A stretch of 64,000 nucleotides of DNA from the NCBI RefSeq assembly GCF_018977255.1, contig NW_024704742.1, positions 11,844,001 through 11,908,000 on the forward strand, written 5' to 3'. The position numbers and the translations under genes were made by a program. Below are positions 1,897-35,088 of the stretch, in pieces. This DNA comes from Callorhinchus milii (Eukaryota). Every line of letters starts with the position of its first letter. The first letter of the stretch is position 1. The notes below the pieces were generated by a model. That model worked only from the letters and a program-made list of their open reading frames with translations. It was not told the origin of the DNA and searched no databases.

Positions 1897-2105
1897 AAAC
1901 AAAAGCAGAAGTCACTGGTAACACTCAGCAGGTCATGAAGCATCTATGAAGAAAGCAAAGTGAGTCAACGTTTCGGGTTCACTATCCTTCGTCAGAACCG
2001 CCAGTTTCTTTCCTTTCTCCATAGATGCTGCCTGCCCTGCTGAGTGTTCCCAGCGACTTCTGTTTTTGTTTCAGATTTCCAGCATTTGTAGTATTTTGTG
2101 TTTTA
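1897..2105 (+). mobile_element. Penelope-like (PLE) short hairpin insertion, copy A
   Basis: Left arm aaacaaaagcagaagtcactggtaacactcagcaggtc...catctatg is the inverted repeat of right arm catagatgctgcctgccctgctgagtgttcccagcgacttctgtttttgtttc. The right arm alone carries the extra tail agatttccagcatttgtagtattttgtgtttt. Hammerhead core in the left arm. Confidence 0.75.
1967..1995 (-). ncRNA. Minimal type-I hammerhead ribozyme core (PLE copy A)
   Basis: Minus strand reads ggUU-CUGACGA-AGGAUAGUGAACCC-GAAA-CGUU-GACU. It has the conserved CUGANGA and GAAA boxes, stem II with one mismatch, palindromic AACGUU as helix III, and GGUU/GACU as helix I. Confidence 0.6.
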
Positions 2106-2127
2106 TTGGATGTTATGGATTATGGAT

Positions 2128-2430
2128 GTCAGCCTGGCTTGCTTGCCAGCCCTCTCACCTCTGAACAGAAAGTTCAAGCCCCACATAGGACTTGCAACTA
2201 ATATAGTTTATGGTGACACTCCAGTACAGCACTGGGGTGTGCTGGATTGTAGAATATGCCGTCCTTTGTATCACACGTTAAACCAAGGTCCCATCTGCCT
2301 GTTCAGATGGACGTCCTCCCGATATGAAAGGCGCTATAGAAATGTAATCTTGTTGCTGTTGATGATAAAGATTCCATGGAACTGTTCGAAAAGGGAAGTT
2401 TCTCCCAATATCCTAACGGGTTTAGCTAAT
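2128..2430 (+). mobile_element. SacSINE1/Deu-type SINE with a ~50-bp L2 3' end inserted at 2315-2365
   Basis: Head agcctggcttgcttgccagc...ttcaagcccc and core ggtgacactccagtacagcactgggg...ttaaaccaaggtcccatctgcctgttcagatggacgt, then L2 tail cctcccgatatgaaaggcgctatagaaatgtaatcttgttgctgttg, then the SINE resumes at taaagattccatgg. Confidence 0.75.
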
Positions 2431-3799
2431 GTGATATGAAATATTTGAATACACACAATTCCCACTGAAATTACAATTATGCTGCAGTAATAATTACAAT
2501 CATCAGGAACAGAAACGTATATCAACAGCATGACTCATGGACAATAAAGGATTACAATGCCATGTTCTGTTGTGATTATACTGATAGCTTCATAATGATA
2601 ATATTTGATCACCTCTGCATCTAATTATGGGTTATAACACACTCCAGTAATCTGTTTAATTACATCCTTTACCACAACACACCAAAATATACATTTTGTT
2701 TACAACAATCGCACAGCTTCAGATTCATCTTTCCCAGAGTGTCTTAAAGTGCAGAGAATTTTTAATTTGGTTTAAAAATAAGTTAAAGATAAATTAAACC
2801 TGCATTGCTAACAAAAATGCTTTTGAAATAGTCCTTTTGTCAACTATCCATTGATAATTAAACAACTATTTTAAACATATCTACAGGTCCAGGAAATATA
2901 TCCGTATAGTTTTAATCTGTGTTGTTTCACAAAATGGGTCTCTCAATAGCACCAATGAACCCTCCACAATTTTCCGCAAAGTCCCAAATCAACTATCTCC
3001 GCATTTTTGGCAAATATTTTTGAAATTTTCTATTGGTCCAGTTTATCATGTCATTGAGACATCTTCAAAGCACTTTACAGAATATACTGTAAAATGGATT
3101 AACTGTATTTTGCCTTGAATAATTCTACTGTTAGTTTTTGTATACAATAATTTGAGTACAATGATTTGTATTGGTCTGTTGAGTTTACTCCTTGTTAAAT
3201 GGTCATACAATAGTAGCTTAAGAGAAATAGTTGAAGATCATGCTGAGCTTCACTGAACACTGCAGTGTAACTATAACTGAAACAAAGTACATTTTGTACA
3301 CTTTCATTTTGAAATGTTCATAAATTGCCCACTGGATCCAGCCGAGGCTTTTAATGTTCGAGACAAAAACAACAATCTGACCTGCTACCAATAAACATAA
3401 CAACAACAACTTGCATTTATACCGCTCGCTTCACACATGGCAGAGTCTCGGAGTACTTAGACCAGTTAGTGGAAGACAGCGTGTGCGCGTGTCCTTGTTT
3501 TTGTTTGTTTAGCAAGTTGAGGGATACAGCTTCAAGCTACTAGATTGTCCCAGTCCTTGTAGGTACCAGTTTTCCATTATGTGTACCATAACTCTCCTGA
3601 GGCAAGTAACTGACTCCGATTGAAACATTTGGGGAAAGAAGGCTCTAACATTTCTCATTGACTACCAAAGTTAATAGTTAATAAAGTGAAAACTCCAGGA
3701 TATGAATTTAATGTATTCCCCCGTGAATTGAGTCCATGGTGTATTGAGTCTAATTTTGCACACGCAATATAGAATGGACATTAGAGCCACGTTGAGGTT

Positions 3800-4015
3800 C
3801 TAATGGGTATTTGTTGGAATGATACCAGGAATGAAATATTATAATTAGATGGAGAGACATTAAAAATTGGACTGCTTTTCCTGGAGCAAAGAAGGTTAAA
3901 CGGGGAAATGTAATAGTGTTTCTAAAATAAAGGTTTTAATAGTATCAATGGAGAAAGATTATTTCTGCTGATCTCTACATCAGAAGCCATAAAGATCATA
4001 CATTGAGGGTTAATA
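3800..4015 (+). mobile_element. Degenerate CR1 LINE ORF2 3' fragment
   Basis: gataccaggaatgaaatatt...attggactgcttttcctggagcaaagaaggttaaacggggaaat...ggagaaagattatttc resembles the CR1 C-terminal LGLFSLEQRRLRGDL...RLF segment. Confidence 0.55.
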
Positions 4016-4345
4016 ATCTTGCGTTTCTGATGGCTCCTTTCACATTAGGATGACACTTTAAAAGTGCTTCACAGACTACTATAAAATAGAGCAACTATGT
4101 ATTTTATAGACAAGCGGTCAATGTTGTAAGGTCCCACAAACAGTCATGAAGTGAATTACCAATTTTATCTAGGTCAGTAAGTATTGGTCAGTACACAGGG
4201 AGAAACTCTATTCACTTTTTGATTTCAGTGCATCCCCAGCACTTCCCTAGAGGATCAGCCAAGACTTTGTGAGTTTGAAGCTTGACATAGGGCTTAAACC
4301 CATTGACTTCTAACGCAGAGTGCTATCAACTCTTAGATGCTGACA
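4010..4345 (-). mobile_element. Old SacSINE1/Deu-type SINE
   Basis: Tail taataatcttgcgtttctgatggctcctttcacattaggatgac, core cccacaaacagtcatgaagtgaattacc, and head remnant ttaaacccattgacttctaacgcagagtgctatcaact. Confidence 0.6.
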
Positions 4346-4503
4346 CATGCCATCAAAAGAAAAAGGGCAAAGTTTGGAAAATTTATCCTTACACATTACC
4401 TGTTGTTTTCCTCCAGAATATCCAAAAAATGTCCCAAATAAAATTGATCATTCACTTAATGGTGTTTGTGGGACATTGTTGTGTCAAATTGGCTGCCACA
4501 TTT

Positions 4504-4780
4504 AATAATAATGATCCTTGTATTTGATATAATGCCTTATCACATCATTGAAACATCTCAAAGCGCTTCACAGAATATACTGTAAAGTGAATTGACTGTA
4601 TAGTTTAGGGGAGAAATGCAGCAGCCAATTGCACACAGCAGTGTCCCACAAATGGTCATGGATTGAGTGACCCCATCTTTTTGGGGGGGATTATCATCCC
4701 CAGAAAGTAATACAGAATTGACTAACAATCAACTTCCTACACGTATTGGGTAAACAGAGGTGTGTGGAGGTAAGAAAATA
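4504..4780 (-). mobile_element. tRNA-Ala-headed SINE, long subfamily, headless
   Basis: aataataatgatccttgtatttgatataatgccttatcacatc...cagccaattgcacacagcagtgtcccacaaa...gggtaaacagaggtgtgtggag. Confidence 0.8.
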
Positions 4781-5907
4781 ATTATTATTAAGATGGCAGC
4801 TCACACTGCTGTGGATGCCATTAATATCTGGTTTTAGGTTGGTGTAGTGCGGTGATCATAAATTATTGACTGTTCAGTTAAGTGTTTTGCCTATGTTTTA
4901 AAAGGTTTTAGAAATCTTATGTAGGGAATGAAACTAGTGATTCCTTAAAGTTAGAAGAGATATTTTCCTGAGAGTAGGCTGCCCTAGACTTTGTGCTGGG
5001 ATTGTCAAGAGCCCTTAAAAATGTACATTAGCACACGTGACTGGTATTAATTGCAGATCTTTTGGAAAACAAATCGCCTCTGCTCATGAAAGATTAGTAA
5101 AAGCTGGATGTGTATTGATTTCAGTGTTCGGCTGGGGGAGTTTCACCAACTCCTTTATGATTGTATTGGGCCAGAGTATGCCTCATGATCTGATCTCTAC
5201 TGCTTCATGGTGATTGTAATGTACTGCAGAAAGTACTTAAATTCTGTAAGGAAAATAATGATTATGTTAATCAATTATGAATCAATTACACTTGTAACTG
5301 ACTGAAATATTTATAGTTAAAATGATTAAACATTGCGGGGGCCATCAAATATTAAGCAAAGTTTAACTTAGGTTATAAAATCACTTTATTACAATTATAT
5401 AGTTATTATTAAGTGGAGCAATTTTTTTATTAAAAGCACCTTGCCCTCATGGGCAAAGCCTATGAATCAATTCACAGGGATATTCTAACACAAGAAAAAA
5501 ATGGCCTGGATACATATAATGTAGTATCCAATAAAGTAAAAAAAGATACTACCCTCATATTATTGTGACTTTTTATTGTCTGCTTTTTGTTTTTTGAATA
5601 CTCCCAGCAGTCAGTTATTGACTCAGTAAAGTTATCTCTCAAAGCGCTTTACAGTATATTCTGTGAAGCGCTTTAAGACATCTCGAAGATGTAATAAGGC
5701 GCTATATCAAATGCAAGGATTATTACTATTTGTAGTGGTAATATTCTTCAAGGGGAGAATTCTTTCATTTACACCCAAAATAGCTTCTCTTAAGACTATT
5801 TGGCATGCACGGACTTCCTGTAGGTACAACTGATACAGGTAGCCTGGTTAGACAACAATAAACAGGAGACATTATAGGCAGTCTCTTCATGAGGTAAAAA
5901 TATCAAA

Positions 5908-6030
5908 AATCTTTCAGGCAGTAATAATTTGTCAAGCGGTAATAATGATGTCTCAGGCAGAATAATAATCTCTCAGGCAATAATAATAATCTTTTGAGGG
6001 GTAATATCAGTAATCTCTCAGGTGGTAATC
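5908..6030. repeat. Degenerate minisatellite, about 6 units of ~20-22 bp (aatctctcaggcagtaataat)
   Basis: Successive units: aatctttcaggcagtaat / aatttgtcaagcggtaataat / gatgtctcaggcagaataat / aatctctcaggcaataataat / aatcttttgaggggtaatatcagt / aatctctcaggtggtaat. Confidence 0.8.
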
Positions 6031-6595
6031 CTTTCCAATTTCAGCCTAACCTTGTTATAACATAATTGCTGCAGTCTTTAAGGTGAGACCTTGCATTATA
6101 ACAGAGTGCATTATAATGCGTTGCCACTTGCGCTCACTGTGGGCTTCCAGGAGCCGTAGCTGGAACAGAAAACACAAAACAGAATTAAACAAGAACGCAG
6201 AAAAAGGAGCTATACAAAATTCACCAATTATTATACAATTATTCGGAATTTATTTTGAGAATCTCTTAGATCAAAACATTCTTCGACTGTGGATCCATGA
6301 CTTTTTACACCCGCCTTGGCGGAGATATTGCTCTTTTCCATGATTGAAATCTTCCAGCAATCTCTACATGCCAATGCCATGGGTTTAATGGCTAATTTTG
6401 CCCAACCTCTCATTTACAGATCAGACAATACAGCTTCTCTAAAATGCAAGTGGATCTCTATGTCCGTCTCTCATTCTTTCTGGTCAATCCTTTGTTTTAT
6501 TTGGGCGGTATGAAATAATTTGACAAGTCACTCGCCTGCACAATTCATAGATTTCCCTTGTAGAGTCATCTCCTAGAATTAACTTGCATTTATTA

Positions 6596-6743
6596 TCCAT
6601 AGAACCTCAGAAATCTACAGCACAGACTCTTGTAGAGCAGTCCTATCAGTTCCATTTATCTGCTTCCTACCACCCCCCCCCCCCCCATACCCCTGTAGGT
6701 TACTCCTCGTTAGATATCCATCTAATTCTCTTTTGAAAGCTAA
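6596..6743 (-). mobile_element. CR1 LINE 3' UTR fragment
   Basis: catagaacctcagaaatctacagcacagac...ccccatacccctgtaggttactcctcgttagatatccatctaattctcttttgaaag is the reverse complement of a CR1 3' end like the one at 52870-53070. Confidence 0.55.
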
Positions 6744-6755
6744 TCCCTGTTTTAA

Positions 6756-6944
6756 GAAACAAAAACAGAAGTCACTGAGAACACTCAACAGGTCAGGCAA
6801 CATCTATGGAGAAAGGAAAGTGAGTCAACATTTCGAGTCCACGACCCTTCGTCAAAACAGGTCCATAGATGCTGCCTGACCTGCTGAGTGTTCCCAGCAA
6901 TTTCTGTTTTTGTTTCAGATTTCCACCATCTGCAGTATTTTGCG
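6756..6944 (+). mobile_element. Penelope-like short hairpin insertion, copy B
   Basis: Inverted arms gaaacaaaaacagaagtcactgagaacactcaacaggtcaggcaacatctatgga / tccatagatgctgcctgacctgctgagtgttcccagcaatttctgtttttgtttc plus one-sided tail agatttccaccatctgcagtattttgcg. Flanked by a perfect direct repeat tccctgttttaaga (6744-6757, 6945-6958). Confidence 0.8.
6827..6855 (-). ncRNA. Hammerhead ribozyme core, decayed (PLE copy B)
   Basis: Minus strand GUU-UUGACGA-AGGGUC-GUG-GACUC-GAAA-UGUU-GACUC. Stem II GGGUC/GACUC is intact. C3>U and the CpG>TpG change in helix III probably inactivate it. Confidence 0.55.
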
Positions 6945-7779
6945 TCCCTGTTTTAAGAGATGATACTCACAATGAGTGTGCTGTGAAGTGTAGTGGCTAT
7001 GTATTTTTTGCGGGAATGCGGCAGCCAATTTGCGCAAAGATATGTCCCACAAACACACTATGAATGACCAATTTTTATCCCGTGATTTCCCTCACATGTT
7101 TTAATCCCAAAAATAATAAATAAGATAGAATAATTCTAATCCACTAACGTGAACTACAATGTAATTACTGGGGTGTTTTATGGCTTGAAAGCAATGCAGG
7201 CTTTTTGGAAACCAGTTTCACTGATTAAATTGTATTCTGCAATCTGCTTAAAGGGATCACAATATTATGTGAATTGAAATTGTATTCCAATAAAGTATTT
7301 TAATTAACTACCTGGCAAAAAGCAAAGTACAATTTATATGCAAATACTAAAGAAAACGAGACCCCAGAGGACAAGAAGTCGATGTATTTGTCAGAACATT
7401 CGAGAAAGTTAAGGTGGAAGGCACTGTGCCCATTTTATAGCCGTGCCTCCATATGTTTGTGTAAATTGAAATGATTCCCATTTTTCCAACAATAAGGAGA
7501 AAGAACATGGATATGAAAGTGAAAAAGAATGATGTTTATTGTAAATTTTCAGTGAAAAGACAAGCATTGGCCAGTTTTGCATCGTTCACATCATTACTGA
7601 TCATAGAATAATTAAATACTATCCAAAGACAGCATTTGTAGAAACACATGATCAACCCATATTGATAGATAAATAAACACAATATAGGATTAAGCAACGA
7701 TTTTAATGGCAGAGATCCCTAAATCTAGCATTGCAAACACTTATTTTACATCATTTAACCAGGGGACTCAGAATTCACA

Positions 7780-8020
7780 GTATAAGATCAAGGGGCAGAA
7801 GTATAAGATTGTGACTAGTGGATCTAAAAGAGCGTTTAGAGGGAATGTCTGCACACAGAGGGTAATGTATATCTCGAGGCTGTATATATATCAGCGAATA
7901 GTGAATAGAAGGGTATGGGAGGGAATAAGGAGTGCATGGAGACTGATGTATAATATAAACACCAGCACAGACTGGTTTGGCCAAATGGCCTGTTTTCTTT
8001 CTGTATAATCTATGTAAATC
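7780..8020 (+). mobile_element. CR1 LINE 3' fragment
   Basis: aaggggcagaagtataagatt...cacagagggtaatg...gggtatgggagggaataaggagtgcatggagact...caccagcacagactggtttggccaaatggcctgttttctttctgtataatctatg: typical CR1 TRGH..TQRVV end plus 3' UTR stem-loop. Confidence 0.65.
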
Positions 8021-8829
8021 TAGATAACATTAATCTTCATAGACTAGCCAATCAATTAGTTATCTATAATAGTAATAATCCTTGTATTTGATATGGTGCC
8101 TTACCACATCTTTGAATCATCTCAACTCGCTTCACAGAATTTACTGTAAAGTGATTTGACAGTATTTTGTGGGCGAAACATGATAGATGTTTTTCCATTA
8201 ATCTCTGATGTGACTCTGTTTGAACAACAACTCACATTTATATAGCACCCTTAATGTAGGATAACATCTTGGAGAGCTTGAATAGGAAGTGGGGACTGCA
8301 AAAGTGTATGCACATCAGTGGCTCGACAGAGCTACCATATCCTGATTGTCTCTCTTGTCTCTAAGTTGTCTCGAAGGATTAACTTCAGTTTGTTTCCATT
8401 AAAAGTTAATAAAGTACACATTGCTTTTTTNATTGCTGAGTCCCACTCTCTTTCCTGCACAAAGCACAGGTCCTTAAATTGAGCTTGTGATGAAATCGCT
8501 TCCCTTATACAGTTAGGTGGTCAAATATCCCCTTGCATTATCGCAGAAGGTGAAAGAAATCATGCGTGCGTCTTGCTTTGAAATAAATGTAATTGAGTTA
8601 GGAAGATTTCCCAACTGGCAATATTGATTGTGAATTTCCCAAGGTTACACAAGAGACAGATTTCATTTAAAAATACCTTGTCATTCTGGAAAGCAGATAG
8701 GTCCAATACACTTATGCATAGTCTTCCTCATACGCAGGGTCATTGCATGAGCGAAGATTGAGTGTTAAAACTTGTAACCTTGCAATTTAAACCCAGTTAA
8801 TTTTTCAAAAATACTTAGAATTATATATA

Positions 8830-9250
8830 ATCATTTTTACATTTGGTATGGCACCTTTCACATCAGGAGGATGTCTTAAAGAGCTTCATAGAATACATTC
8901 AAAAGTGGAGCGACTAAGTATTCTGTAGGTGAATGCAGCAACAATTTGCAAACACTAATATCCCACAAACAGCTGTGCAATGAATGGCCAATTTTATTTG
9001 GGGAAATCTTGGCCAGAAAACCAGGAGAAACTCCCTACTTTTTTTAAATAGGGCCACGGGATCTTTAACATCCATCTGAACAGACAGACAGGACCTCAGT
9101 TTAACATCTGAGCCGAAGGATGTAGCACCCCTCACAGTTTTCTACCAGAGTGTCAGCCTAGACTATATGAATTCAAAGTCCTGATATGCAGCTTGAACCC
9201 ACAACCCTCTGACTTGGACGCAAGAGTGCTGTGAACTGAGCCAGGCTGTA
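8830..9250 (-). mobile_element. SacSINE1/Deu-type SINE, near full length
   Basis: Tail (catttggtatggcacctttcacatcaggaggatgtc), Deu core (gggatctttaacatccatctgaacagacagacaggacctcagtttaacatc) and tRNA-like head (gcttgaacccacaaccctctgacttggacgcaagagtgctgtgaactgagccaggctg). Confidence 0.8.
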
Positions 9251-9540
9251 TAGCCAAATAAACTAAAAGAGAATTCGTGGAACCAATCATAATAGTGTCT
9301 TATTTGAACTCATCCTTTTCTCACAAACTATACAGTCAATTCACTTTACAGTATATTGTGTGAATCACTTTGAGACGTCATGAAGACATGATAAGGCGCT
9401 ATATCAAATGCAAGGATTATTATTATTATCCAGTTATCCTGACAGTATTAAGATGACAGATGGTCAGGGCAACCAAAGCAGAGATCTCAAGGATTTGTAG
9501 AAAACAGAAAAGGCTGCTCAGTCATAAATCCTGTAGCTGC

Positions 9541-9854
9541 AGTCCTGTAGCTCAGTGGTTAGAGCACTCGCTTTGCAAGCGAGAGACCTGAGTTCAATTC
9601 CAAGCAGGTCAGGGCGAAACCTTGGGCAAGTTTCCTTACTCCACACAGAGCCTAATAATAATCCCTCCAAAAATAATAATAAATTGGTCATTTTCAATCT
9701 ACGACTGTTTGTAGGACATTGCTGTGCGCAATTGGCTGCCGCGTTCGCCCACAAATATGCAGTCAATTCACTTTACAGTGTGTTCTGTGAAGTGCTTTGG
9801 GACGTCCTCCCGACGTGAAAAGCACTATATCAAATGCAAGGATTATTATTATTA
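9541..9854 (+). mobile_element. tRNA-Ala-headed SINE, young short subfamily, full length
   Basis: A box gtagctcagtggttag, anticodon arm ctcgc-tttgcaa-gcgag, B box gagttcaattcc; core ctgtttgtaggacattgctgtgcgcaattggctgccgcg; tail gggacgtcctcccgacgtgaaaagcactatatcaaatgcaagg(att)n. Confidence 0.9.
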
Positions 9855-10530
9855 TAACATTTTATGATCAATGGGTCAGTGTTGAAGTCAAGAACTAGAA
9901 TTAATAATGTGGATGAATAGAGAGATATTATACAAAACTAGCATAGGGGGATCAGAAAGCATAATTTTAAATACCTAAAGTACAAGTCATCATAAAGAAC
10001 ACCCTCAAGCTGTCAGCTTGTGGAACAGTCTGCTGTGCGTAATAGGCTGCCGCATTTCGCCAACAAAATATACAGTCAATTCACTTTATAGTATATTCTG
10101 TGAAGTGCTTTGAGATGTCTCAAAGCCTTGATAAGGTGCTATATCAAATGCAAGGATTATTAATAGAATGCTGCTTTTAATGTTGACTTGAGGTATGCAA
10201 AAGTGAATGGATTAATGAAGGATTTAACAAGGAATGGAGGGATATGGGTTTATAGAGATTGATTGAACACCTGAACCAGCACCTTGAAGACAGAATGAGT
10301 GGATGAACTGAACTGGATTTTCTGACTCCTTTGTTCTTAGACAGATCACTAAAGCTAAGCAATAAAGTTTGGTTACATATCATGCATTAATTGGTTAGAT
10401 AACTGCAGCACCATGATAGACAAATCTTACCACTCTTTCCATAACATGGGTAGAGTTTGAGGTCTAGACATTGGATCCAAAATGTGACATTAATTGAGAC
10501 AATTCTTCAAGATGAGTCTTAATTTTATAG

Positions 10531-10685
10531 CAAAAACAGAAGTCGCTGGGAACACTTCTGACGAAGGGTGTACCGGAAATGTTGATTCAGTTTCCTTTCT
10601 CCATAGATGCTGCCTGACCTGCTGAGTGTTCCCAGCGACTTCTGTTTTTGTTTCAGATTTCCAACATCTGCAGTATTTTGTGTTT
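10531..10685 (+). mobile_element. Penelope-like short hairpin insertion, copy C
   Basis: Short inverted arm caaaaacagaagtcgctgggaacact, then the sense arm from the hammerhead to the tail agatttccaacatctgcagtattttgtgttt. Flanked by tcttaattttatag (10517-10530) / tcttaattttgtag (10686-10699). Confidence 0.8.
10558..10583 (+). ncRNA. Hammerhead ribozyme core with shortened stem II (PLE copy C)
   Basis: CUGACGA-AGGGUGUACCG-GAAA-UGUU-GA. Both conserved boxes are present; stem II is shortened relative to the copy B consensus GGGUCGUGGACCC. Confidence 0.5.
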
Positions 10686-11199
10686 TCTTAATTTTGTAGA
10701 CTGTTTTCTGTAAATTCTCTTAAGTTTGGCAAAAAGGCTTGAAATAAGGCTGAATTTAATGATATGGCAAATGTTGGACTCTCAGAAATGCTAACTAAAT
10801 AGAGTAAATCCAGACCAACTGGAAATTCCAGTTGCAATTTCTCCCAATAGTTCCACAATTCAGGAATCTGAGAGACACTTTTGAGTAACCTAGCAAACCA
10901 ACTCAGTGGAACTCTAAGTAGATTGAGTTGCAGCAAGTCTGCGTGATTTATGTCCAGATTTCTTAACTAAGGAATTTCATTTGAAATAGCTGTGATTCAG
11001 ACCTCATTTTTTTTAACAAGGTGTGCTGTGAGCAGCAACCATGCTTTGCAAGTGTTTGTACTAAAACCTAATGAAGATTCACGCTTTGTTGTAATTGTAG
11101 CCCAATTATGGCACAAGCATTACTTTAAACGTTTGTTTGTGACACATTCGGAAGCGGAAACCTTATTCCTAACCAGGTGCCTAGCAAAGTCTAATCTAG

Positions 11200-11480
11200 C
11201 TTCACAGAAATCGGTGTAATAGTTTCTCATGTACTTGATTTACAACCATTAAAATCAAGATGATATTTTCCTGTTACTTTGGGAATTTTAATGAACTTAA
11301 TTGCATCACTTGGCATTTCAGATGTTGGAAACATTCAGCTTTGATAATAGCTTGTTAAATGTAATCAAAACTCTTTTTAAGGGAATTAATAGCTCTGTTT
11401 CTTTCACTTGTGGCATTGAGCCAAGATATTTAATTGAGACACCTGACAAGGATACACAATTTCCTCTGTTGTTTCACAAT
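11200..11480 (+). mobile_element. Ancient L1/Tx1-clade LINE reverse transcriptase fragment
   Basis: ORF 11301-11522 HHLAFQMLETFSFDNSLLNVIKTLFKGINSSVSFTCGIEPRY...PLLF and upstream QDDIFLLLWEF resemble the L1/Tx1 RT segment (LFLDF.KAFD.VEH.FIF..L..FGFG..FI..IKTLY..INSSV....G.S.RF....G.RQGCP.SPLLF). Confidence 0.55.
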
Positions 11481-11918
11481 TACCATGATGGAAATCTTAA
11501 AGGTGTTGAAAGGACGACATAAAAAGTGCTGTAAGCAATCAGTCAGGAGATCATTTCATGCCTTTAAGAATATGTTAGTTTCTCCTGAACTATTTAAGAA
11601 ATCGTGCATTCAAAAATTGGTATTAAATATGGATTCTGGTTGTGCAAAACATATCATTGAAACTTGCCAGCAAAATTAAGACTGAAGAAACAAAAATTCT
11701 GCCCAAGGAACGACAAGAAGGTGTGTAAAAAAAAATGAAAACAGTAAAGTAGATATCTTTTGTCCACAATGAGATCTTTTGATTTGAAACACAGTCTTTT
11801 ACAGTGTAGTCAATTTGCAACTTTCAAATTGCACCAGTTTACAGACTTACCAGTTGCTCATTTTTTGTCACCTGCATTTTGGAATAAGCCTCCATTATAA
11901 ATGAAGTGAATTCCCCAG

Positions 11919-12116
11919 CACTGGTGGTCCAACTTTTTGGCTGCTGAGAGCCAGATTCCCTATTTGAGAAATGACTGCATAAGCAATATTTTTGTGTTCT
12001 CTTTCAGAAAAATAAAATTTCCGTGTTATGTAAGGGTGGGCCAGATGAAATAGAAGGAGGGAGGGAGGGGGTGGCCTGATGAAATCTGCGCGTGGGCCAC
12101 CAGTTGGACCACACTG
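11919..12116. mobile_element. Old non-autonomous hAT (Charlie-like) MITE
   Basis: Imperfect TIRs cactggtggtccaact ... agttggaccacactg with subterminal gggcca motifs. Right flank gtctaagc fits the Charlie-type target; the left TSD is not recognisable. Confidence 0.55.
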
Positions 12117-13265
12117 GTCTAAGCAATGTACAACTGAAGAAGTTCCACAGTATAATTGTGGTACAATAAGAATAATCAGAATAATCCTTGCATTTGATAT
12201 AACGCCTTATGTCTTCAAGACATCTCAAAATTCTCCACTATAAAATGAATTCTCTACAATTCGTGAGCAAAACATACTGTATTTGATATGAGGCAAACGC
12301 ACCTCCTATTTCTCTGTAAATTCAGTAAAACATCTATGGTCATCGTTTGATGCATCCAGGATTTTTCTCTTTTTTTTCCTCCTCCCCTATTCACACCATG
12401 CTTTTAGAGCTCTACCCCACCCTTTATCTGCTCTATCTTAAAGCTCCTCCATCCATTTTATGTCTCAGGGACTCCTCTGTGCTCCCCCCATTTTGCAAGA
12501 TTCTATCACCTTCTCTATATGTCATTGCTCCCTCTGGTTGACTTGCCTCCATTTCCCCTTCAATAAATCCTCTCTTAATTCTGCCTCCCTTAGATTTACT
12601 GTAACCAGTATTTTTTGCGACCCATTTAGTTTTGCGATTTTCACTCTCCACTGTTTTTGCATGAAATTGAACAAGTCACAGAAAACGTTTTAATTTGAAC
12701 TTGCCCTTAATTAAACAGCCAGTAAAAGTATGATCACACGTGTTGCCGGGAAATAAAGGGACTTGAATCAAACGTCGGGGCTCCACTGTGCAAAAAAAAA
12801 AAGCGTGTGCTGAAATTAGTGGTTATACATTATCCCAATCTGTTGCTATATATTGTATGTTGTACACCATTGAACACAGTGGCTTATTTAGAATGCACAC
12901 CCGATGAGTGCAGGTTCACTTATAGTATTAAAGGTCCTGTTGTCAGTTCACTCTGGTTGTGTGCCATGCCCGGCTTTATAACAACAAACAAGATTTTAGT
13001 TACAAGCCACATCCTCTGCTGACTTCTGGGTCTTCAGGTCACCACTGATGTCATTTCCTGTGTGTTGCTCACTATGCACAGGAAGCTTTGCTGTTGTTAC
13101 TTCCCATGTGCTACGTCTGCGCTGTGTTTGTGTAGGAATCGCTTTTAATAATAATTCATACATTTGTTATAGCTCCTTTCACATCAGTAGGACATCTGAC
13201 ACTCTTTCACAGGATATACTGCAAAGTGTAGTAACTATGAATCAGACACCTGGAGTGAATAGGAC

Positions 13266-21516: not shown

Positions 21517-21789
21517 TTAGATCAATGTTTAATTTTATCATCATTATTATTAAGAAACATTTATTATCATCAACATCATCATCCATGGTCCTCATTCTAA
21601 ATGGAAAGCACAGCTAAAACCACACTACGCATTTGTCCTTTGGTTTGGCAGGGTTGAGAGTATGTTTACACCTGCATATCTAACTTCATAGAGAGGTTCC
21701 CTCTAGACAACAGCATAAGAAAGCATGGGACAAAACAGTAGCTTCATACTGGCTGGAAAAAATCATGATTTATAATCATTCAATGATTA

Positions 21790-24336: not shown

Positions 24337-27330
24337 ACAATCTACTACTTCAGATCACTATCTACTCTATCATGCCCTTTGATGATCTTATAGGTTTCTA
24401 TAAGATCCCCGCTAATTCTTCTATATTCTAGAGAATATAGGCCCAAATTGGTCAGCCTATCCTTGTAACTCAACCCCTTCATCCCTGGTACTAACCTAGT
24501 AAATCTACGCTGCACACCCTCCAGGGCAAGTATGTCCTTCCTTAAATGAGGAGACCAAAACTGGACACAGTATTCCAGGTGTGGTCTCACCAGGGCCCTA
24601 TACAGTTGCAGCAAGACTTCCCTACTCTTATACTCTAATCCTTTCATAATGAATGCTAACATCCCGTTCGCCTTCCTAATTGCTGCTGCACCTTCAGACT
24701 AACTTTCTGTGATTGGTGTACAAGGACACCCAAGTCCCTCTGGACGCTAACACATTCCAATCTCTCCCCTTCTAAAAAATAACCCGCTCTACTGTTTTTG
24801 CTCCCTAGGTGGATGACTTCGTACTTCCGTACATTATACTTCATCTGCCACCTACCTGCCCAATCACCTATCTATGTCTCGCTGCATTTTTTTAATGTCG
24901 TCCTCTGTGTTGGCACTTCCTCCTAGTTTTCTGTCATCCGCGAATTTAGATATCATAACTTCGATGTCCTCATCTAAATCATTGATGTAGATGGTAAATA
25001 GCTGAGGCCCAGGGACTGATCCATGTGGCACTCCACTAGTCACATCCCGCCAATCTGAAAAGGACCCGTTTATCCCTACTCTTTGATTCCTACCCGTTAA
25101 CCATTCCCCAATCCACATTAATATGCTCCCCCCAATTCCATGGGCCCTTATCTTTTGGACTAACCTTTTATGCACACCTTATCAAATGCCTTCTGGAAGT
25201 CCAAATAGACCACATCCACTGATTCACCCTTATCTAGTTTACTGGAAATATCCTGAAAAAACTCTATGAGATTTGTCAAACATGAATTCCCTTTTGTAAA
25301 GCCATGTTGACTTGGCCTAATTATATTGTGCTTCCCTAAATACCGCACTACCACATCCTTAATCAATGATTCTAATTTTTTTCCTATCACTGATGTGAGA
25401 CTAACTGGCCTATAGTTCCCCATCTTTTCCTTTCCACCTTTTTTAAATAGTGGTGTGACATTTGCGATCTTCCAATCCATGGGGACTGTTCCAGAATCCA
25501 AGGAATTTTGGAAGATCAGACATAAGGCCTCCACTATCTCATAAGCTCCTCTTTTAAAACCCTGGGATGCAAGCCATCCGGACCAGGGGATTTGTCACTT
25601 TTTAGAACTAACAGTTTTCCCAGTACCAATTCTCTACTAATGAAAATTTCCCTAAGTTGCTCCCTGTCCTTATCCCTTTGGTGCATCTCTATTGTTGGCA
25701 GACTTGTTGTGTCTTCTAGGGTGAAGACAGATGCAAAGTACCCATTTAGGGACTCTGCCATGTCCTTGTCCCCCATTACAACTTCTCCCGTCTCAGACTG
25801 AAGTGGACCTACATTTACCCTCACCAGCCTATTCCTCTTAATATATTTGTAAAAACTTTTACAATCAGACTTAATGTTCCTAGCTAGCTTACCCTCATAC
25901 TCCTTTTTCTCGCTCTTAATGAGTTTTTTAGTTTTATTTTGCTGGTTTCTAAAACTCTCCCAATCTTCAGATTTGCCACTTTTCTTGGCAGTTTTATAAG
26001 CCTTTTCTTTTAATTTGATGCTTTCCCTAACTGCTCTAGTTAGCCACGGATGAATTGCTTTCCCTGTGGTACTCTTATTCCGCAAGGGAATATGCGACCG
26101 CTGAGAATTTTGCACTACATCCTTAAATATTTGCCACTGTTGGTCTACATTTTTAACTCTTAATCTTATTCTCCAATTTATTTTACCTAAATCTTTCCTC
26201 ATACCCACACAATTAGCCCTATTTAAATTCAGAATACTTGCCTCGGATTTAACTATATCCCTCTCTAACTTAATGCAGAATTCAATCATATTGTGATCAC
26301 TCTGCCCGAGAGGATTCTTAATACCTACACTGTCGACTAGCCCTGTTTCGTACACAAAACAAGGTCTAGGATGGCCTGTCCCCTAATTGGTTCCTCGGCA
26401 TGCTGCTCTAGAAAATTATCTCTCATACATTCAATGAACTCTTCTTCTGACCTACTTTTGCCGATTTGGTTTTCCCAATCTATGTGGAGATTGAAATCAC
26501 CCACTATTATCGCTTTACCTTTCCTACATGCTCCACTGATTTCTTGATTGATACCCAGTGCTATATTGTGACCGCTGTTTGGGGGTCTATAAACCACTCC
26601 CATTAATATTTTCTGCCCTTTATTATTTTTTATTTCCACCCATATAGTCTCGACCTCCTGGTTATCGGATTTCAGATCCTTCCTCTCCACTGCTTTTATT
26701 TCATCCCTAATTAACAGGGCTATTCCCCCACCTCTTTTCCCACTGTGCCTATCTTTCCTGTAAGCTGAGAACCCTGGAATATTTAGTTCCCACCCAAGAT
26801 CTCCTTGTAACCATGTTACAGTGATGACTCCTAGATCATACCCATATGTGTCTATCTGTGCTTTTAATTCATCAGTTTTATTCATTTCCTACCATTTCCT
26901 CTACTCTCTGATTCCTTATCTACTTTGCCAAGCTTCTTACCCCTAGTTAACATATTCCTATTATCTGGCATGCTATTCTGCACTGTCATCTTTACTTTTT
27001 CAAATGCTAACTTATGGTTTATCTTACCTATATATTCCCCCACCTTTACTAGTTTAAATTCCTATTTATTTCCCTGTTAATTCGTTTGGCTAGGACATTT
27101 GTCCCAGCACGATTTAAATGCAGCCCTTTTCTCCGAAAGAGCTCTCTTTTCCCCCAATACTCGTGCCAATGGCCCATAAAAAGAAACCCCTGAGTTCCGC
27201 ACCACTCTTTTAGCCATGCATTCAAGTCCTTAATTTGTTTGTTCCTGTACAATTGTCGTATGGTACAGGCAGTAGTCCCGATATTACCACTTTCGATGAT
27301 CTCGACTTCAATTTGGACCCCAGCTGGTCA

Positions 27331-29579: not shown

Positions 29580-29925
29580 ATAATGATAATAATCCTTGTA
29601 TTTGATATAGTGCCTTATCACATCTTCAAGATGTCTCTACTGTAAAGTGAATTGACTGCATATTTTGTGGGCGAAACCCGGAAGCGAATTGCACATAAGA
29701 CTTTCTCACAAACAGTCATGGATTGAGTGACAAATTTTTTTTTGAACAAATTATTACCCCCGGAACAACAATCCACCAATCAACTAACAACTGAGTTCCT
29801 ACTTACTGCTCGGTAAACAGAGGTGTGTGGAGTAAGGACACTTGCCCAACATTTCGCCGTGCCGGGAATCAAACTCAGGTCTCTCGCTTGCAAGGCAAAT
29901 GCTCTAACCACTAATCTACAGAACT
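29580..29925 (-). mobile_element. tRNA-Ala-headed SINE, long subfamily
   Basis: Tail through the extra segment gagttcctacttactgctcggtaaacagagg to head ctctcgcttgcaaggcaaatgctctaaccactaatctacag. Confidence 0.85.
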
Positions 29926-31050: not shown

Positions 31051-32349
31051 ATATTGCATTATAATGCACATTTTGCCCATAAAATATACAGTCAATTCAC
31101 TTTACAGTATATTCTGTGAAGGGCTTTGTGACGTCTCAAAGATGTGATAAGGCGTTATATCAAATGCAAGGATTATTATAATCAACTAGTATAAAGAGGG
31201 TGAAATATTTGTGATTCATGGTGTGGCACAATTTACGCAAGTAATAATTGCAAGGTAAAATGTATGATCATTTTTCACTCCAATGTACCTATAAAGGTTT
31301 TACTTTTTTAAAGACTAGAACAGTATATTTATTTTGCTATTGTGTGTGCTAATTATGCCAAATGTGCTGGCATAAAACAGGTCATCACAATATAAGCACC
31401 GACTTGAATAACAAATCAAAATTGCCTAATAGATCATAGTTGAAAGCAAGCAACGTGCCTGCTTCCATTTGTAACTCAATGTACTATTAGTATATATATA
31501 TTATATTATAACAGGGATTATGCCATGGGATCCTATATTTGATGGGCAAAATGCCATAGTATTCCAGTGTTTTAGTCCAGTCTTTGCAGATGATTTGCTG
31601 GTAAAGTTAAAAATAAATCAGATCTACTATATTGTGCTATGTGAGCATTTTTCCCTAGAGATTGGCTTCATGGGTTTCAGTGAGGGCCTCGTCATATTTT
31701 CTGTGCATTTACGAACACAATGTGTTTCCATCTATCCCTTGGAGCCGCAGACAAACTGATTTCTGTGAGCTCTCTCCACTCAGATTAACATTCTCGCATT
31801 AGGTTCAAAAGCAGATAGACACTTAATGAAATATTCTCCCCAGCACGGTATAATCTGAAATAAGTAATTCAAAAGTCGTCTCTGTTAAATTGATTTTGCT
31901 TCAGCACATTATCATATTTTATGCATTGCTCAGTCTCATGCTCATTATATTTCCTCTCGGTTCCTATGCTGTTTTGCCAATGATCTCTGATAAAAGGAAT
32001 AGGAAGTTACTGCTTTGAATTATTCACATTGCTCCTCTTTTCAAAAGCTCTTTTATAAGAACTGGAATACACGTACTGTGCATTCGGGGAGGTGCACAAC
32101 CTAAGCCAGATGGAACTGGGACAGAGTAAAATGTGGTGAAGAGTCTTACTTAAAGGCATGATCGGTGCAAGTATGGAATTTTTTAAAGTTTACTTTCAAA
32201 ACTTTGTTTTCCGATTCTTGAAGGAAAAAAATGTCTTAAAATGTTTTCTTTTTATAATGGAGTGAATAGCGAAATATCAGGAAGGTTTCCTATTGTCTTG
32301 GGAGTTTATGACAGTGGTGTCATCGTGTAATTCCTGCCTTCATTTCAAA

Positions 32350-32590
32350 AGACGATGGTAGAAGAAGCCTTGGGGACCACAATGCTGAGTGGTAAGAATA
32401 CCTGGAACATCAGCCTTGGGGGAAAAAATTGGATTCTCTCTGGAAATCTGAGATCACCTGTGTGTGAAGGCTGGAATATCCATTGGAGACACCACAACAT
32501 CAGCTGAAGGAAGAAGCTGGCAGTCTCTATTGAAAACCTTGAGCATTTGTCACAGCAGATGTCAGCCAAAACTGGACTGAAATTACAATA
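32350..32590 (+). mobile_element. Possible degenerate RTE-clade LINE 3' fragment
   Basis: Broken frames DGRRSLG / MLSGKNTWNISL / KAGIS..RSWQSL / CSRCQPK..TGLK loosely follow the RTE C-terminal G.R..GRP.LRYKD....L...GI...W...A.DR..WR...C...C.SRIGL pattern. Confidence 0.3.
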
Positions 32591-34484
32591 ACCAGATTAC
32601 AATAATGTGACACTATTACAAGAGAAGCCTATTGTGAGCAAGCACAATGGAGGAAGAGTGGACACCATCTCTTTTTGTCTTGGAAGATAATATTCTGTGG
32701 AAAAATATTGCATTGTACTTACTTCTAGTTGGCTGTAAGTAAAAATGAAAATAGAATGAAAGCAGTCAATTTTATGGGCTTGGATCCGTTCCTGTCAGAT
32801 GGGAATGAGCTTCCAATGTCCAATTCTTTTGCACACATGGTACTGTTTGTCTTTACAACATATTTAGCCTGTAAAAAAAATCACACATAAATAATGAAAT
32901 TGAAACTTAATGGAAGTCAAAAGGATTCCATGGCCTTCAGGAAAGGAGGAGGGAATTAACTTGGAAGAGAAAAGTAGGCAGAATAAAAAAAATTACTTAA
33001 AATTACAAAATCTTGCATTTATATAGCACCCCTCACACAGGGTCGCGTCCCAGAGCGCTTGATAGTGGCAGAGCACGACATCGAGCTGGTGAGACGGGAG
33101 GTGACTGTGGGTATGGTGGAATAGGAAGGTCTTCAGGTGTGAACTGAAGATGGGGAAAGAAGGGGTAAGCAGCTACAGTCCACAAATCATATAAAAGGGC
33201 ACAATTGCCAGTTATTGCGATCAAATTCACTGCACATGTGTGGAGGAAGATGGCTGGCTCCATTGGCACTTTATGGGAACCACAAAATTGTGGGACTGCA
33301 ATGTCATCAGGTCACTGCTGACATAATTTCCTTCACATTGTACACATTTTGGATGTTTTGGTTATTAGATGCGAGGTCCACACCTCAAACACTCTCCAAG
33401 CAAACCTGAGTAATCCACAGCCCATTACAATTGGTTTCCAAGAATGTCGCAACTCAATCATATTTAGTGTTTATTTTATATATTATTATATATAACATTG
33501 TGTGTAATATACATACAATATATGTACATTTGTGTGCTATATTTGGTGCCAGCTATAGTTCAGGGAATCGAATATTACCACAAACATGTAGACACTTTCT
33601 CACTTTTGAGGGTATAGCACCATTTGTTCTAATACTATACCCTTGAAGTCTCTGAAAAGACCAAATAAAATTGTATGCTCAAGTTTCCAGTCAAGATTTC
33701 AGAGAAAATATGCACTTTCTGCTTGACTCTCAAGAGCTCCCAGAGTTCTCTGTATTATTTTAACATAATAGCAGCCGCATTATGAATTATTTTTCTCCCA
33801 AACTGTACATCAGCATTCAGTACTCATTTATCTTTTATTCACAAACCTCTATCTGAATCAAATAGCATTAAAAATTGTTGAGGTTTCACATGAATCATTT
33901 TTACAAGCACTGAGTGTGAATTGCTTTTAAAGTTTTGAATGCTTATTTATCCATGTAATATTTCACCTCTCTTTTCATCCGTTTTTCTTCTATTGCACCA
34001 TGCCACGATGCTTACTTATTCTCTTCAGGACAAGTAAGAGCCCCTCCCTCCCCGAAATCTCACAAAGTGGCGTTCCTCATGTGTGGATGAGGGTTGTTTG
34101 ATTGTGGAGTAACTTTCCTTATCTCTTGTCCACACGAATGTGAATTTCCATGACAGGCCAGTGGGTAGAAATAATATACTTGCCTATCTCTTCCCCGTCT
34201 TGGTTTGAAGACCAGGGGCTCATGCAGCCCTTATTGAACTCGAAAAAATGAATACCATGTCCAAAAAGGAAGCTTCTTTCAAGGAGCTTAGTGGCGTCTT
34301 CTTGGCCTGAACTGGGTGCAACTAGTCATTCTTCGAAAAATACAAAAGGCCCAAAGTAATCCAAGCCAAAGATCTGGACATGTCTCCAAGTCTGTGAGCC
34401 AACATGCATCGGTTGATCCAGCTGGACAAGTACTAGACTGGGTCATGACCAAAACTTACTGAAGCACTGAAAAACAAACCAGTT

Positions 34485-35088
34485 ATAATAATCCTTGCAA
34501 AACGCAAAATACTGCAGACGGTGTGAATCTGAAACAAAAACAGAAGTTGCTGGGAACACTCAACAAGCAGGTCAGGCAGCATCTATGGAGCAAGGAAATG
34601 CCGTGGGATCCTATATTTGACGGAAAAATGCTATAGTATTCCAGTCTTTCGTGGACCCAAAACGTTGACTCACTTTCCTTGCTCCATAGATGCTGCCTGA
34701 TCTGCTGAGTGTTTCAGTGACTTCTGTTTTTGTTTCATAATAATCCTTACATTTGATATAGTGCCTTATCACATCTACGAGACGTCTCAAAGTGCTTCAC
34801 AGAATATACCGAAAAGTGAATTGAGTGTATGTTTTGTGGACAAAATGCGGTAGCCATTTGCTCAGAGCAGTGTCCAGCAAACAGTCATGGATTGATTGAC
34901 CAAATTTATTTATTTTTGCCCTGGAAAAGCGATCTGACAATCGACTGACAACCAGGTTCCTATTTACTGCGAGGTAAACAGAAGCATGTGGAGTAAGAAA
35001 CTTGCCCAATGTTTCACCCTGCTGGGAATCGAACCCAGGTCCTCTCACTTGCGAGGCGAGTCCTCTAACCACTGAGCTATCGAACTCC
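34485..35088 (-). mobile_element. tRNA-headed SINE, long subfamily, tail interrupted by PLE hairpin D
   Basis: Head at 35020-35088 (gggaatcgaacccaggtcctctcacttgcgaggcgagtcctctaaccactgagcta); tail start duplicated at 34485-34499 and 34737-34751. Confidence 0.85.
34500..34736 (-). mobile_element. Penelope-like short hairpin insertion, copy D, with captured sequence in the loop
   Basis: Tail on the left (aacgcaaaatactgcagacggtgtgaatct), inverted arms, and only the 3' half of the hammerhead (gtggacccaaaacgttgactc). 15-bp TSD ataataatccttgca / ataataatccttaca. Confidence 0.8.

Follow-up and report, generated by a model that had tools for sequence, protein, structure and literature searches.

The 64-kb stretch of DNA analysed here (the window) contains four small inverted repeats, which raises the question of what they are and how they arose. 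The original prediction took them for remnants of Penelope-like elements (PLEs) carrying a minimal hammerhead ribozyme. We followed this reading from the anatomy of the insertions to their parent element, their ends and the state of the hammerhead.

Anatomy of the window insertions

Each of the four insertions is a head-to-head pair of arms of one ~135-nt unit, with 3′ ends outward (Table 1), and the coordinates first given for all four are right to 1-2 nt. The eight arms, used as queries with blastn and nhmmer, found no others in the 64-kb window. In every insertion one arm terminates ...TTTGTTTC and its partner continues for 32-35 nt, which is the one-sided short tail that had been described (4/4 elements). 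The arm anatomy likewise bears out the description of the insertions as inverted, 5′-truncated copies. The 50-nt filler of E4 has a sole other match in the 991-Mb genome, at the window site listed in Table 1. Predicted RNA hairpin energies of the window elements lie far under those of dinucleotide shuffles (z −8.4 to −15.7, both strands). The window hairpins also give weak Rfam microRNA matches.

Table 1. Coordinates of the four insertions, their parts and their target-site duplications (window positions)
Feature	Position	Strand	Remarks
E1, whole insertion	1897-2105		
E1 long arm, without tail	1897..1998	-	reaches the family's common 5′ end; decayed hammerhead 1963-1998, helix II broken
E1 junction filler	1999..2007	.	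~9 nt between arms
E1 short arm	2008..2105	+	5′-truncated downstream of hammerhead; tail ~2073-2105
E1 target-site duplication			10 bp, 1 mismatch, plus ~17 extra nt
E2, whole insertion	6756-6944		
E2 long arm, without tail	6756..6861	-	decayed hammerhead 6823-6859 (C3>U, C15.2>U)
E2 short arm	6862..6944	+	tail 6917-6944
E2 target-site duplication	6744-6757 and 6945-6958		TCCCTGTTTTAAGA; 14 bp, perfect
E3, whole insertion	10531-10686		
E3 very short arm, without tail	10531..10556	-	26 nt
E3 long arm	10553..10686	+	decayed hammerhead 10554-10587 (3-nt helix II deletion, C15.2>U); tail 10655-10686
E3 target-site duplication	10518-10530 and 10687-10699		13 bp, 1 mismatch
E4, whole insertion	34500-34736		
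E4 arm with tail	34500..34598	-	tail 34500-34530; 5′-truncated just downstream of hammerhead
E4 central filler	34599..34648	+	89% identity to unique DNA at 31520-31572
E4 arm without tail	34649..34736	+	begins in hammerhead loop 2, without CUGANGA
E4 target-site duplication	34485-34499 and 34737-34751		15 bp, 1 mismatch
Source of E4 filler	31520..31572	+	3.09 kb upstream, same strand

Arm ends across the genome

The consensus unit of the original prediction is identical to the majority consensus of 98 genome arms, a set in which three arms are counted twice (loci L040 and L053 overlap) and which thus comprises 95 unique arms. The 3′ ends of these 95 arms are discrete, with 24 at reference positions 194-206, 53 at position 228 or beyond and 18 elsewhere, and the tail is 33-37 nt long across genome arms. 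Among 21 head-to-head pairs, 13 combine a short arm with a tailed one, one combines two tailed arms, none combines two short arms, and seven have an end shortened by BLAST. Short plus tail accounts for 13 of the 14 pairs having both ends classifiable, the primary arms of loci L002-L030 having been picked by a tail-containing query; the four window pairs, picked independently of that query, are all of this type. Single units with their own target-site duplication exist as well (for example L005 and L014). At the other end, ~60% of genome copies stop upstream of the hammerhead by no more than 6 nt, a TATA-like box lying 29 nt before this end, and in ~40% the unit has a PLE 3′ UTR and ORF upstream of it.

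The parent element

The anticipated linkage of the unit to an ORF with reverse transcriptase (RT) and GIY-YIG domains was found: a PLE protein fragment used as query gave 10 loci, and in 9-10 of them the unit follows such an ORF of the same genome on the same strand, 200-650 bp downstream of its end. This position marks the unit, on sequence grounds, as the 3′ terminal module of a PLE. In L031 and L032 the upstream sequence in common extends at least 840 bp. The window itself had been said to hold no PLE ORF, and indeed tblastn with four PLE proteins gave no match there at E ≤ 1.

The ORF fragments, of which the genome holds at least 3,400-3,800 candidates, carry LFTMD..SLYTSIP, AMGTRMGPSYA and YIDD. 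The long copies L061, L063 and L065 have KPADKGG (the DKG motif), and RYIDD is present in those of L061, L064, L065 and L067. The GIY-YIG core of the ORF fragments reads GIY..C..C..C..YIGET with C-X4-C-X2-C upstream of it, and a GIY-YIG with internal cysteines, VVYCIHCSRCGLLYIGET...R..EH, occurs in L050, L048 and L059. Such cysteines between GIY and YIG (the CCHH motif) are described for the C-terminal GIY-YIG of PLEs (Craig et al., 2021, PMC8557442). The same paper describes a CX2-5CxxC linker upstream of GIY-YIG, given there as missing in Penelope/Poseidon. In the L050 ORF we read a CX4CxxC linker, PCQHRRCNTCPF, by eye, which offers a Neptune/Nematis-type clade as a lead.

Against Pfam, the genome's own partial ORFs gave no RVT_1 match, and their GIY-YIG matches (E 0.012-0.016) fall under the curated cut-off. 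Full-length relatives (827-1130 aa) bear both RVT_1 and GIY-YIG; P0005 and P0010 exceed the RVT_1 cut-off, and P0010 is also above that for GIY-YIG (27.2 vs 22.6 bits). The family looks extinct, since no intact ORF was found. Because neither a full-length copy of the window family nor a tail-into-ORF junction was recovered (the best, L068, corresponds to P0005 residues 166-874) and no arm of the 98-arm consensus set continues past the tail, we infer where the unit lies with respect to the ORF start. In another, intact PLE family of this genome (L070), a 2994-bp tandem, the hammerhead lies just before the open frame.

Proposed origin of the insertions

Anatomy, target duplications, tail and ORF linkage support the interpretation as PLE remnants. 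Each window element is very probably one old retrotransposition event of a PLE with an RT, a GIY-YIG domain at the C terminus and the CX4CxxC linker, with the Neptune/Nematis type as its candidate clade. By analogy with in-vitro work on the anole element PAc, we infer double priming and internal initiation. Endonuclease cuts in the two strands of an AT-rich target would be offset by 10-15 bp. Both 3′ ends would then prime reverse transcription on the PLE RNA, at two internal start sites that are fixed and separated by 33-37 nt. Two start sites used on two primed strands would yield cDNAs that face each other, one alone bearing the tail. Each cDNA would then either halt early or reach the RNA 5′ end, which would precede the hammerhead core by 0-4 nt, and the cDNA ends would be joined via 0-50 nt of filler. 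On this mechanism the unit would be the stretch of the PLE pseudo-LTR bounded by the RNA 5′ end and the RT start sites, with a minimal type-I hammerhead in between.

An inverted, 5′-truncated copy with a 30-40 bp tail at one end is described for PLEs (PMC8557442). For PAc, nicking and extension of both strands, two internal RT start sites and a tail equal to the interval between them are reported (PMC11167929). The family studied here, its arms with a hammerhead estimated arithmetically at an order of 7,000, constitutes a large natural record that is consistent with these in-vitro and published findings, namely two internal RT start sites and priming on both strands. The window copies themselves are inactive tail-end PLE fragments, a known kind of genomic debris and not a new system; they are non-coding and without promoter, and their ribozymes are broken. 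If transcribed within host RNA, they would still form long hairpins, and long perfect-stem hairpins could feed dsRNA pathways of the host.

The fixed 5′ end

Transcription of the element begins, in our reading, at the common 5′ end next to the hammerhead, on its upstream side. The A in CCAGTTC is preceded at a distance of 29 nt by a TATA-like TTAAAAG, a spacing that would suit an initiator, and in the intact L070 family, too, a TATA box precedes the hammerhead. The sharp 5′ end is a testable candidate for a PLE transcription start.

A further, tentative reading, which we hold possible though short of probable, is that the 100-135-nt unit represents a discrete product class and not truncation at random. 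Every long copy would then end, in its last ~170 nt, with a self-contained launcher that fires a short RNA copied by the PLE protein. The launcher would consist of the TATA-like box, the initiator and the hammerhead, together with the sites that the RT recognises and at which it starts; the RNA would begin 0-4 nt before the hammerhead core, and the PLE protein would bind it, start copying internally and reverse-transcribe as far as the cap. If so, mini-insertions without a promoter would arise in their thousands, often in the form of double-primed hairpins, and the capped RNA end would be the 5′ strand of hammerhead helix I. Cleavage would in that case remove a capped leader of ~33 nt, possibly switching the RNA between the roles of mRNA and template.

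Alternatively, the boundary could be an RNA-processing site (as for Penelope of D. virilis, the sequence can also be read as a polypyrimidine tract with a CAG 3′ splice site) or else a strong RT stop. The 70 nt upstream of the boundary are pyrimidine-rich and end in CAG, as such a site would have it. However, splicing would join a common upstream exon to the unit, whereas short copies are directly preceded by unrelated flank or target-site duplication, the TATA-like TTAAAAG suits an initiator, and the L070 family has its own TATA box. We regard this alternative as rather unlikely, while giving it real weight, and keep to the transcription start.

The hammerhead motif

The family consensus has CUGACGA, an unpaired A, helix II GGGUC/GACCC (G10.1-C11.1), GAAA, CG, U and U, with helix I AGUU/GACU of 4 bp including one G-U. 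The claimed motif (CUGANGA, a 5-bp stem II, GAAA and ACGU replacing helix III) is therefore present in the consensus of the 98 arms. Minimal hammerheads have, according to Cervera and De la Pena (2014, PMC4209133), an unpaired nucleotide between 9 and 10.1, G10.1-C11.1, a palindromic 15.2-16.2 without loop 3 and a helix I of 4-5 bp. The consensus has every published feature of the metazoan PLE minimal type-I hammerheads and constitutes a putative ribozyme.

The prediction of a minimal hammerhead stands for the family and falls for the window copies, of which 0/4 are intact. A strict descriptor gave no match in the window on either strand. Three window hammerheads are mutated, mostly at CpG sites (that of E1 has two mismatches in helix II), and the fourth, in E4, is truncated. 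All four being broken, self-cleavage at the window loci is not expected. Beyond the window, family loci totalling 223 kb gave six intact copies with the descriptor, and 20 shuffles of 287 kb gave none; sequence-intact hammerheads number 365 genome-wide vs 0 in a reversed control. Helix changes within the family (56-58 arms) are decay of CpG type, with only two A-T double changes in all; compensatory ones are essentially lacking.

The motif could, on the other hand, be no working ribozyme here and be kept in the master copy for protein binding, as promoter-proximal structure or by ancestry. The Infernal/Rfam check that had been suggested failed, with no match at gathering score in the window and none at E ≤ 10 on E1, and for three intact copies and L070 the Rfam hammerhead models likewise gave nothing at E ≤ 10. 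This miss is expected, since the models include helix III and minimal forms are without one. Helix I is only 4 bp and helix III is absent, and minimal hammerheads are described as poor cleavers in vitro, dimers included (PMC4209133). Furthermore, none of the 95 unique arms has its start at reference positions 130-134, the predicted cleavage site, so that there is no sign of cleaved RNA as template; in this, too, the natural record agrees with the in-vitro or published findings. For PAc, hammerhead mutants left in-vitro insertion unaffected, and RNA-seq reads ending at the cut site are reported as absent (PMC11167929). Against a motif without function as ribozyme stand the zero descriptor matches in shuffles and the second PLE family of the genome: L070 has one hammerhead per repeat in the same layout, and between the two families helices I and II vary in sequence and length yet pair, in a comparison of two sequences only. 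We consider a non-working motif unlikely, and retain the putative ribozyme.

Other identities of the unit

The unit might instead not be a piece of a PLE but a non-LTR retrozyme; such small hammerhead repeats are arranged in tandem, give rise to circular RNA and are moved in trans by PLEs. The sharp unit length would suit one turn on a circular template, and vertebrate retrozymes related to PLE pseudo-LTRs, one of them chondrichthyan, are described as leaving monomer copies (bioRxiv 10.64898/2026.07.22.740005). However, a tail followed by a unit start within 0-6 nt, two mismatches allowed, has no match genome-wide, head-to-tail pairs are absent from 71 records (70 loci plus the window, ~350 kb), and the PLE sequence upstream of ~40% of copies also speaks against it. 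We judge a retrozyme very improbable.

A DNA-transposon identity, as MITEs (non-autonomous elements with terminal inverted repeats), for which the elements were rightly said to be mistakable as small sequences with an inverted repeat, a target-site duplication and a strong propensity for hairpins, is contradicted to the point of near-impossibility by arms that are unequal and vary at their inner ends as in 5′ truncation, extra 32-35 nt always at one outer end, duplications varying between 10 and 15 bp, units found singly with their own duplication, and a parent in which the unit is the 3′ end of an RT/GIY-YIG ORF. In annotation, the window hairpins belong under PLE fragments, not under MITEs or microRNA-like loci.

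Comparison with known systems

The insertions resemble those of PLEs with an endonuclease (Evgen'ev and Arkhipova, 2005, Craig et al., 2021, PMC8557442; PAc, PMC11167929), as described there, in their head-to-head arms and 30-40 bp tail at one end, and also in AT-rich targets, variable duplications, a parent ORF with RT and GIY-YIG, and a hammerhead ~100 nt upstream of the RT start sites. Unlike known PLE insertions, most copies here are mini-insertions of 100-135 nt stopping at one fixed 5′ position by the hammerhead, and the family looks extinct. Distances of ~70 and 105 nt separate the cleavage site from the RT start sites downstream of it, whereas the start sites of PAc are given as 111-118 nt into the ORF.

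With the metazoan PLE minimal hammerheads, in the account of Cervera and De la Pena (2014, PMC4209133), the family shares CUGANGA, the bulged nucleotide before stem II, G10.1-C11.1, GAAA with a 2-nt palindrome for helix III, and a helix I of 4-5 bp. Also shared are thousands of scattered copies, some in opposite-strand pairs, which that paper places 100-700 bp apart. Stem II of the putative ribozyme is 5 bp here and 6-8 bp in Schistosoma and D. virilis (PMC4209133), and the window copies are mutated.

Non-LTR retrozymes, as described (Cervera and De la Pena, 2020; bioRxiv 10.64898/2026.07.22.740005), are alike in being hammerhead-bearing, non-coding, related to PLE pseudo-LTRs and present as many dispersed monomers. 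Unlike retrozymes, the unit has no tandem junction in the genome and is contiguous with a PLE ORF in long copies.

L1 twin priming, finally, has both nicked target strands priming cDNA and leaves inverted segments within one target-site duplication, and is alike in both respects. In L1 the inverted part derives from a more 5′ region of the RNA, whereas here the 3′ recognition sites of the element itself would be the starting points of both arms, which span one and the same sequence.

Results

Anatomy of the hairpin elements

The window carries four hairpin elements (E1–E4; see the table), whose limits in the original prediction proved accurate to 1–2 nt. Each consists of two opposite copies (arms) of one unit of ~135 nt with their 3′ ends outward, and the extra tail that had been described for one arm only is found in all four, at 32–35 nt rather than ~30 nt. 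The window holds exactly eight arms and no further ones, as judged by blastn and nhmmer with all eight arms as queries. The tail-less arm of every element terminates in ...TTTGTTTC, and the tail-bearing arm is 32–35 nt longer, with the terminus ...GCAGTATTTTG(T/C)G(TTTT). A single direct target repeat brackets each pair, and both arms of an element were thus inserted in one event. Each element forms a long RNA hairpin on either strand, with a minimum free energy 8–16 SD under that of dinucleotide shuffles, and this folding accounts for the weak matches of the elements to Rfam microRNA models. Comparison of assembled contigs of guessed RNA status with window positions 1–20000 gave mostly short contigs derived from other repeat copies, and neither transcript starts nor ends.

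The filler joining the arms of E4 is 89% identical to a same-strand stretch 3.09 kb upstream, its sole other match in the 991-Mb genome searched. The divergence between filler and source resembles that between the arms, and therefore the filler was probably copied during insertion; it may stem from a jump to a local transcript as template or from templated repair. At another locus of the genome, L024, two extra imperfect repeats of the unit's first ~10 nt (..ACTGACGAA..) lie 5′ of the unit start (~1465–1500), as if by polymerase stuttering or renewed copying of the RNA 5′ end; short reiterations resembling these occur at L011 and L013. In L062, L066, and L067, a short inverted unit caps each long arm, itself truncated within the RT region; this is the head-to-head architecture of the window elements, with one arm extending over kilobases.

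Elsewhere in the window, a Pfam search of the 20 longest frames returned no host exon, only LINE RT and APE pieces. Eleven tRNA-model matches (32–52 bits) share nearly identical bodies and have mismatched acceptor stems; they are most likely the heads of a tRNA-derived SINE family, not tRNA genes.

Features of the window and the locus of a second PLE family (positions are those of the window unless a contig is named)
Feature	Position	Strand	Inner arm ends	Target duplication (direct repeat)	Hammerhead or content
E1	1897-2105		joined via ~9 nt filler	10 bp, one mismatch, ~17 extra nt	two stem II mismatches
E2	6756-6944		joined directly	14 bp	C3>U and C15.2>U
E3	10531-10686		joined directly, 4-nt overlap	13 bp	3-nt stem II deletion and C15.2>U
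E4	34500-34736		joined via ~50 nt filler	15 bp	starts within loop 2
E4 filler	34599-34648				
Match to E4 filler	31520-31572				
Broken LINE fragment	14191-15090	+			RVT_1/APE-type endonuclease domains
Broken LINE fragment	25160-25594	-			RVT_1/APE-type endonuclease domains
Broken LINE fragment	26337-26888	-			RVT_1/APE-type endonuclease domains
Broken LINE fragment	54608-56019	-			RVT_1/APE-type endonuclease domains
tRNA-model match	9541-9612				
tRNA-model match	62220-62292				
tRNA-model match	46254-46325				
tRNA-model match	24263-24334				
tRNA-model match	45127-45199				
tRNA-model match	59233-59295				
tRNA-model match	59867-59938				
tRNA-model match	35022-35079				
tRNA-model match	21788-21857				
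tRNA-model match	29854-29925				
tRNA-model match	20294-20365				
L070	contig C1063, 1-10000				

Family size and parent ORF

With the long arm of E3 as query, at least 472 candidate places were found in the 991-Mb C. milii assembly; the 65-nt core of the unit is too common in the genome for such a query, its words being masked by the DNA search. The first 14 nt of the unit occur in 1,760 exact copies genome-wide versus 9 for a reversed control, and exact counts combined with per-site retention give an estimate on the order of 7,000 hammerhead-bearing arms. Among loci from the E3 search, similarity extends upstream beyond the unit in 10 of 49 arms, with at least 840 bp of shared sequence in L031/L032, and in long arms this upstream sequence codes for the C terminus of a GIY-YIG endonuclease. 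Ten further loci were fetched with P0002, a 422-aa ray protein found via the endonuclease fragment; in 9–10 of these ten the unit follows the ORF on its strand, 200–650 bp past its end, a linkage in keeping with the predicted origin from Penelope-like elements (PLEs).

The ORF fragments of the family contain RT motifs (LFTMD..SLYTSIP, AMGTRMGPSYA, and RYIDD), the PLE-diagnostic KPADKGG, and a GIY...YIGET core that has cysteines between both halves and a C-X4-C-X2-C motif directly upstream. In Craig et al. (2021; PMC8557442), a CCHH signature with GIY/YIG-spaced cysteines marks PLE endonucleases, and a linker of the C-X4-C-X2-C type is named for the Neptune/Nematis clades. Full-length relatives in the protein collection (827–1130 aa) combine RVT_1 with GIY-YIG; on the genome's own broken ORF fragments, Pfam GIY-YIG reached E values of 0.012–0.016, under the cut-off, and RVT_1 gave no match.

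As the original prediction held, the window contains no PLE coding sequence. Furthermore, no intact or full-length family copy was found in the genome, the candidates being LINE-interrupted or 5′-truncated: a 913-aa frame runs from the tail of a PLE endonuclease into a LINE, L046–L048 are interrupted by LINEs, and L068 lacks the first ~165 residues. In the family consensus, the frame from an ATG inside the unit is open up to the tail and has no visible N-terminal similarity to the proteins P0005 or P0015; a stop-free run of 28 codons lacks significance, and this ATG was rejected as the PLE ORF start.

Both ends of the unit

Ends were compared in 95 unique arms, leaving aside the reference copy and L053, a duplicate locus; L001, L031–L034, L068, and L069 had been removed earlier as redundant. 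The 3′ ends form two classes, at reference positions 194–206 in 24 arms and at 228 or beyond in 53; in 18 arms they fall elsewhere, mostly where the alignment was cut short. The 21 head-to-head pairs comprise 13 short+tail, one tail+tail, no short+short, and seven with an unclassifiable end; the pairs from L002–L030 are biased, because a tail-containing query selected their primary arms, and the four window pairs and L049, which lie outside that selection, are all short+tail.

The 5′ end is sharp. With position 101 as the first T of TTCTGACGA, 34 of the 95 arms start at 95–101, 12 at 102–129, and 11 at 135 or higher, 38 run upstream (90 or lower), and none start at 91–94 or 130–134. Genome-wide exact counts, which are free of the sampling bias of these arms, agree: the 1,760 copies of the 14-mer fall to 1,031 with upstream AG, 422 with CCCCAG, and 249 with AACATGCCCCAG. 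The resulting step ratios are 0.59, 0.41, and 0.59, versus the ~0.83, 0.73, and 0.60 that decay alone predicts from the column retentions of the arm consensus; arithmetically, ~60% of copies end within 6 nt upstream of the unit, and the 6 nt beyond that hold essentially no ends. In long copies the boundary reads CCAGTTC, which fits an initiator, and a TTAAAAG box 29 nt upstream is kept in 33–35 of 35 arms (its final G in 29 of 35). Short copies are directly preceded by unrelated flank or the target duplication, without a shared exon.

Together, the pile-up of ends, the initiator fit, the TTAAAAG box, and the unrelated flanks suggest that the PLE RNA begins at the boundary, which would most likely be its transcription start. 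RNA processing is a live alternative source of the boundary, owing to the arrangement in D. virilis Penelope: its transcription start, within the pseudo-LTR, precedes a 75-bp intron by 46 nt, and PMC4209133 has the 3′ end of that intron abutting helix I. If the boundary is the RNA 5′ end, the short unit would be a cDNA begun at an internal RT start site and extended as far as the cap.

The hammerhead motif

The hammerhead core proposed for the elements (CUGANGA, GGGUC/GACCC, and GAAA) stands for the family consensus, but all four window copies are defective. The majority consensus of the arms reads, in order, AGUU (helix I), CUGACGA, an unpaired A, GGGUC-GUG-GACCC, GAAA, CG, U, U, and GACU (helix I strand). 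All the features that Cervera and De la Pena (2014; PMC4209133) list as having emerged unplanned in PLE minimal hammerheads are present in the C. milii consensus. A strict descriptor had no match in the window; it recovered six intact motifs from 223 kb of family sequence and none from 287 kb block-shuffled 20 times. A pattern with only N7 and two loop positions variable gave 365 copies genome-wide versus 0 in the control.

The Rfam check yielded no hammerhead match in the window at the gathering score, and the Rfam hammerhead models gave none at E ≤ 10 on E1, on three intact copies, or on L070, a locus of another PLE family. The 56–58 motif-covering arms show decay without compensation; only six are intact throughout, with the four CpG sites as the variable columns. 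None of the 95 arms starts at the predicted cut site, and published minimal hammerheads, as described in PMC4209133, cleave poorly even as dimers. These results speak against ribozyme activity or at any rate lend it no support. In the predicted fold of the intact 37-mer, helices I and II form at −10.8 kcal/mol, versus −8.2 for pure hammerhead pairing, and two copies can pair over 6 bp through the ACGU stretch (−5.7); these computed energies are compatible with the hammerhead model, not decisive.

L070 is a 2994-bp tandem head-to-tail array with open 825-aa frames and repeats 99.5–99.9% identical. Directly ahead of the open frame, each repeat bears a single hammerhead whose layout matches that of the window family, and a TATA box (TATATATA) lies ~60 nt upstream of this hammerhead. 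The helices differ from those of the window family, stem II having 6 bp and helix I 10 bp. This second family looks recently active, unlike the window family. Contigs C888, C162, C269, C1200, and C235 hold further places of it.

Discussion

By every testable criterion, the window elements are complex insertions of endonuclease-positive PLEs. They behave as known insertions of this type do, and the first reading of them as PLE remnants was correct. PLE-derived retrozymes and monomers are described across vertebrates, including one chondrichthyan, in a preprint (bioRxiv 10.64898/2026.07.22.740005); a retrozyme was rejected here, the tandem junction having no matches in a genome-wide pattern search. 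A MITE is dismissed by the unequal arms, the one-sided tail, the variable duplication lengths, and the RT-encoding parent. No paper was found on the family or on the 5′-end pile-up, and Repbase or the supplements of the retrozyme preprint may list the family.

PLE hairpin insertions are nothing unusual in the genome of a fish-like vertebrate, and the two additional findings, a putative transcription start beside the hammerhead and a probably templated filler, are modest. According to a 2024 study (PMC11167929), the anole PAc protein nicks and extends both target strands in vitro, reverse transcription begins at two adjacent internal RNA sites, and the tail is the RNA stretch between both start sites. 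Craig et al. (PMC8557442) describe an inverted 5′-truncated copy beside the PLE and a 30–40 bp tail often at one end only. The window elements resemble this published PLE signature in both their inverted copy and their one-sided tail.
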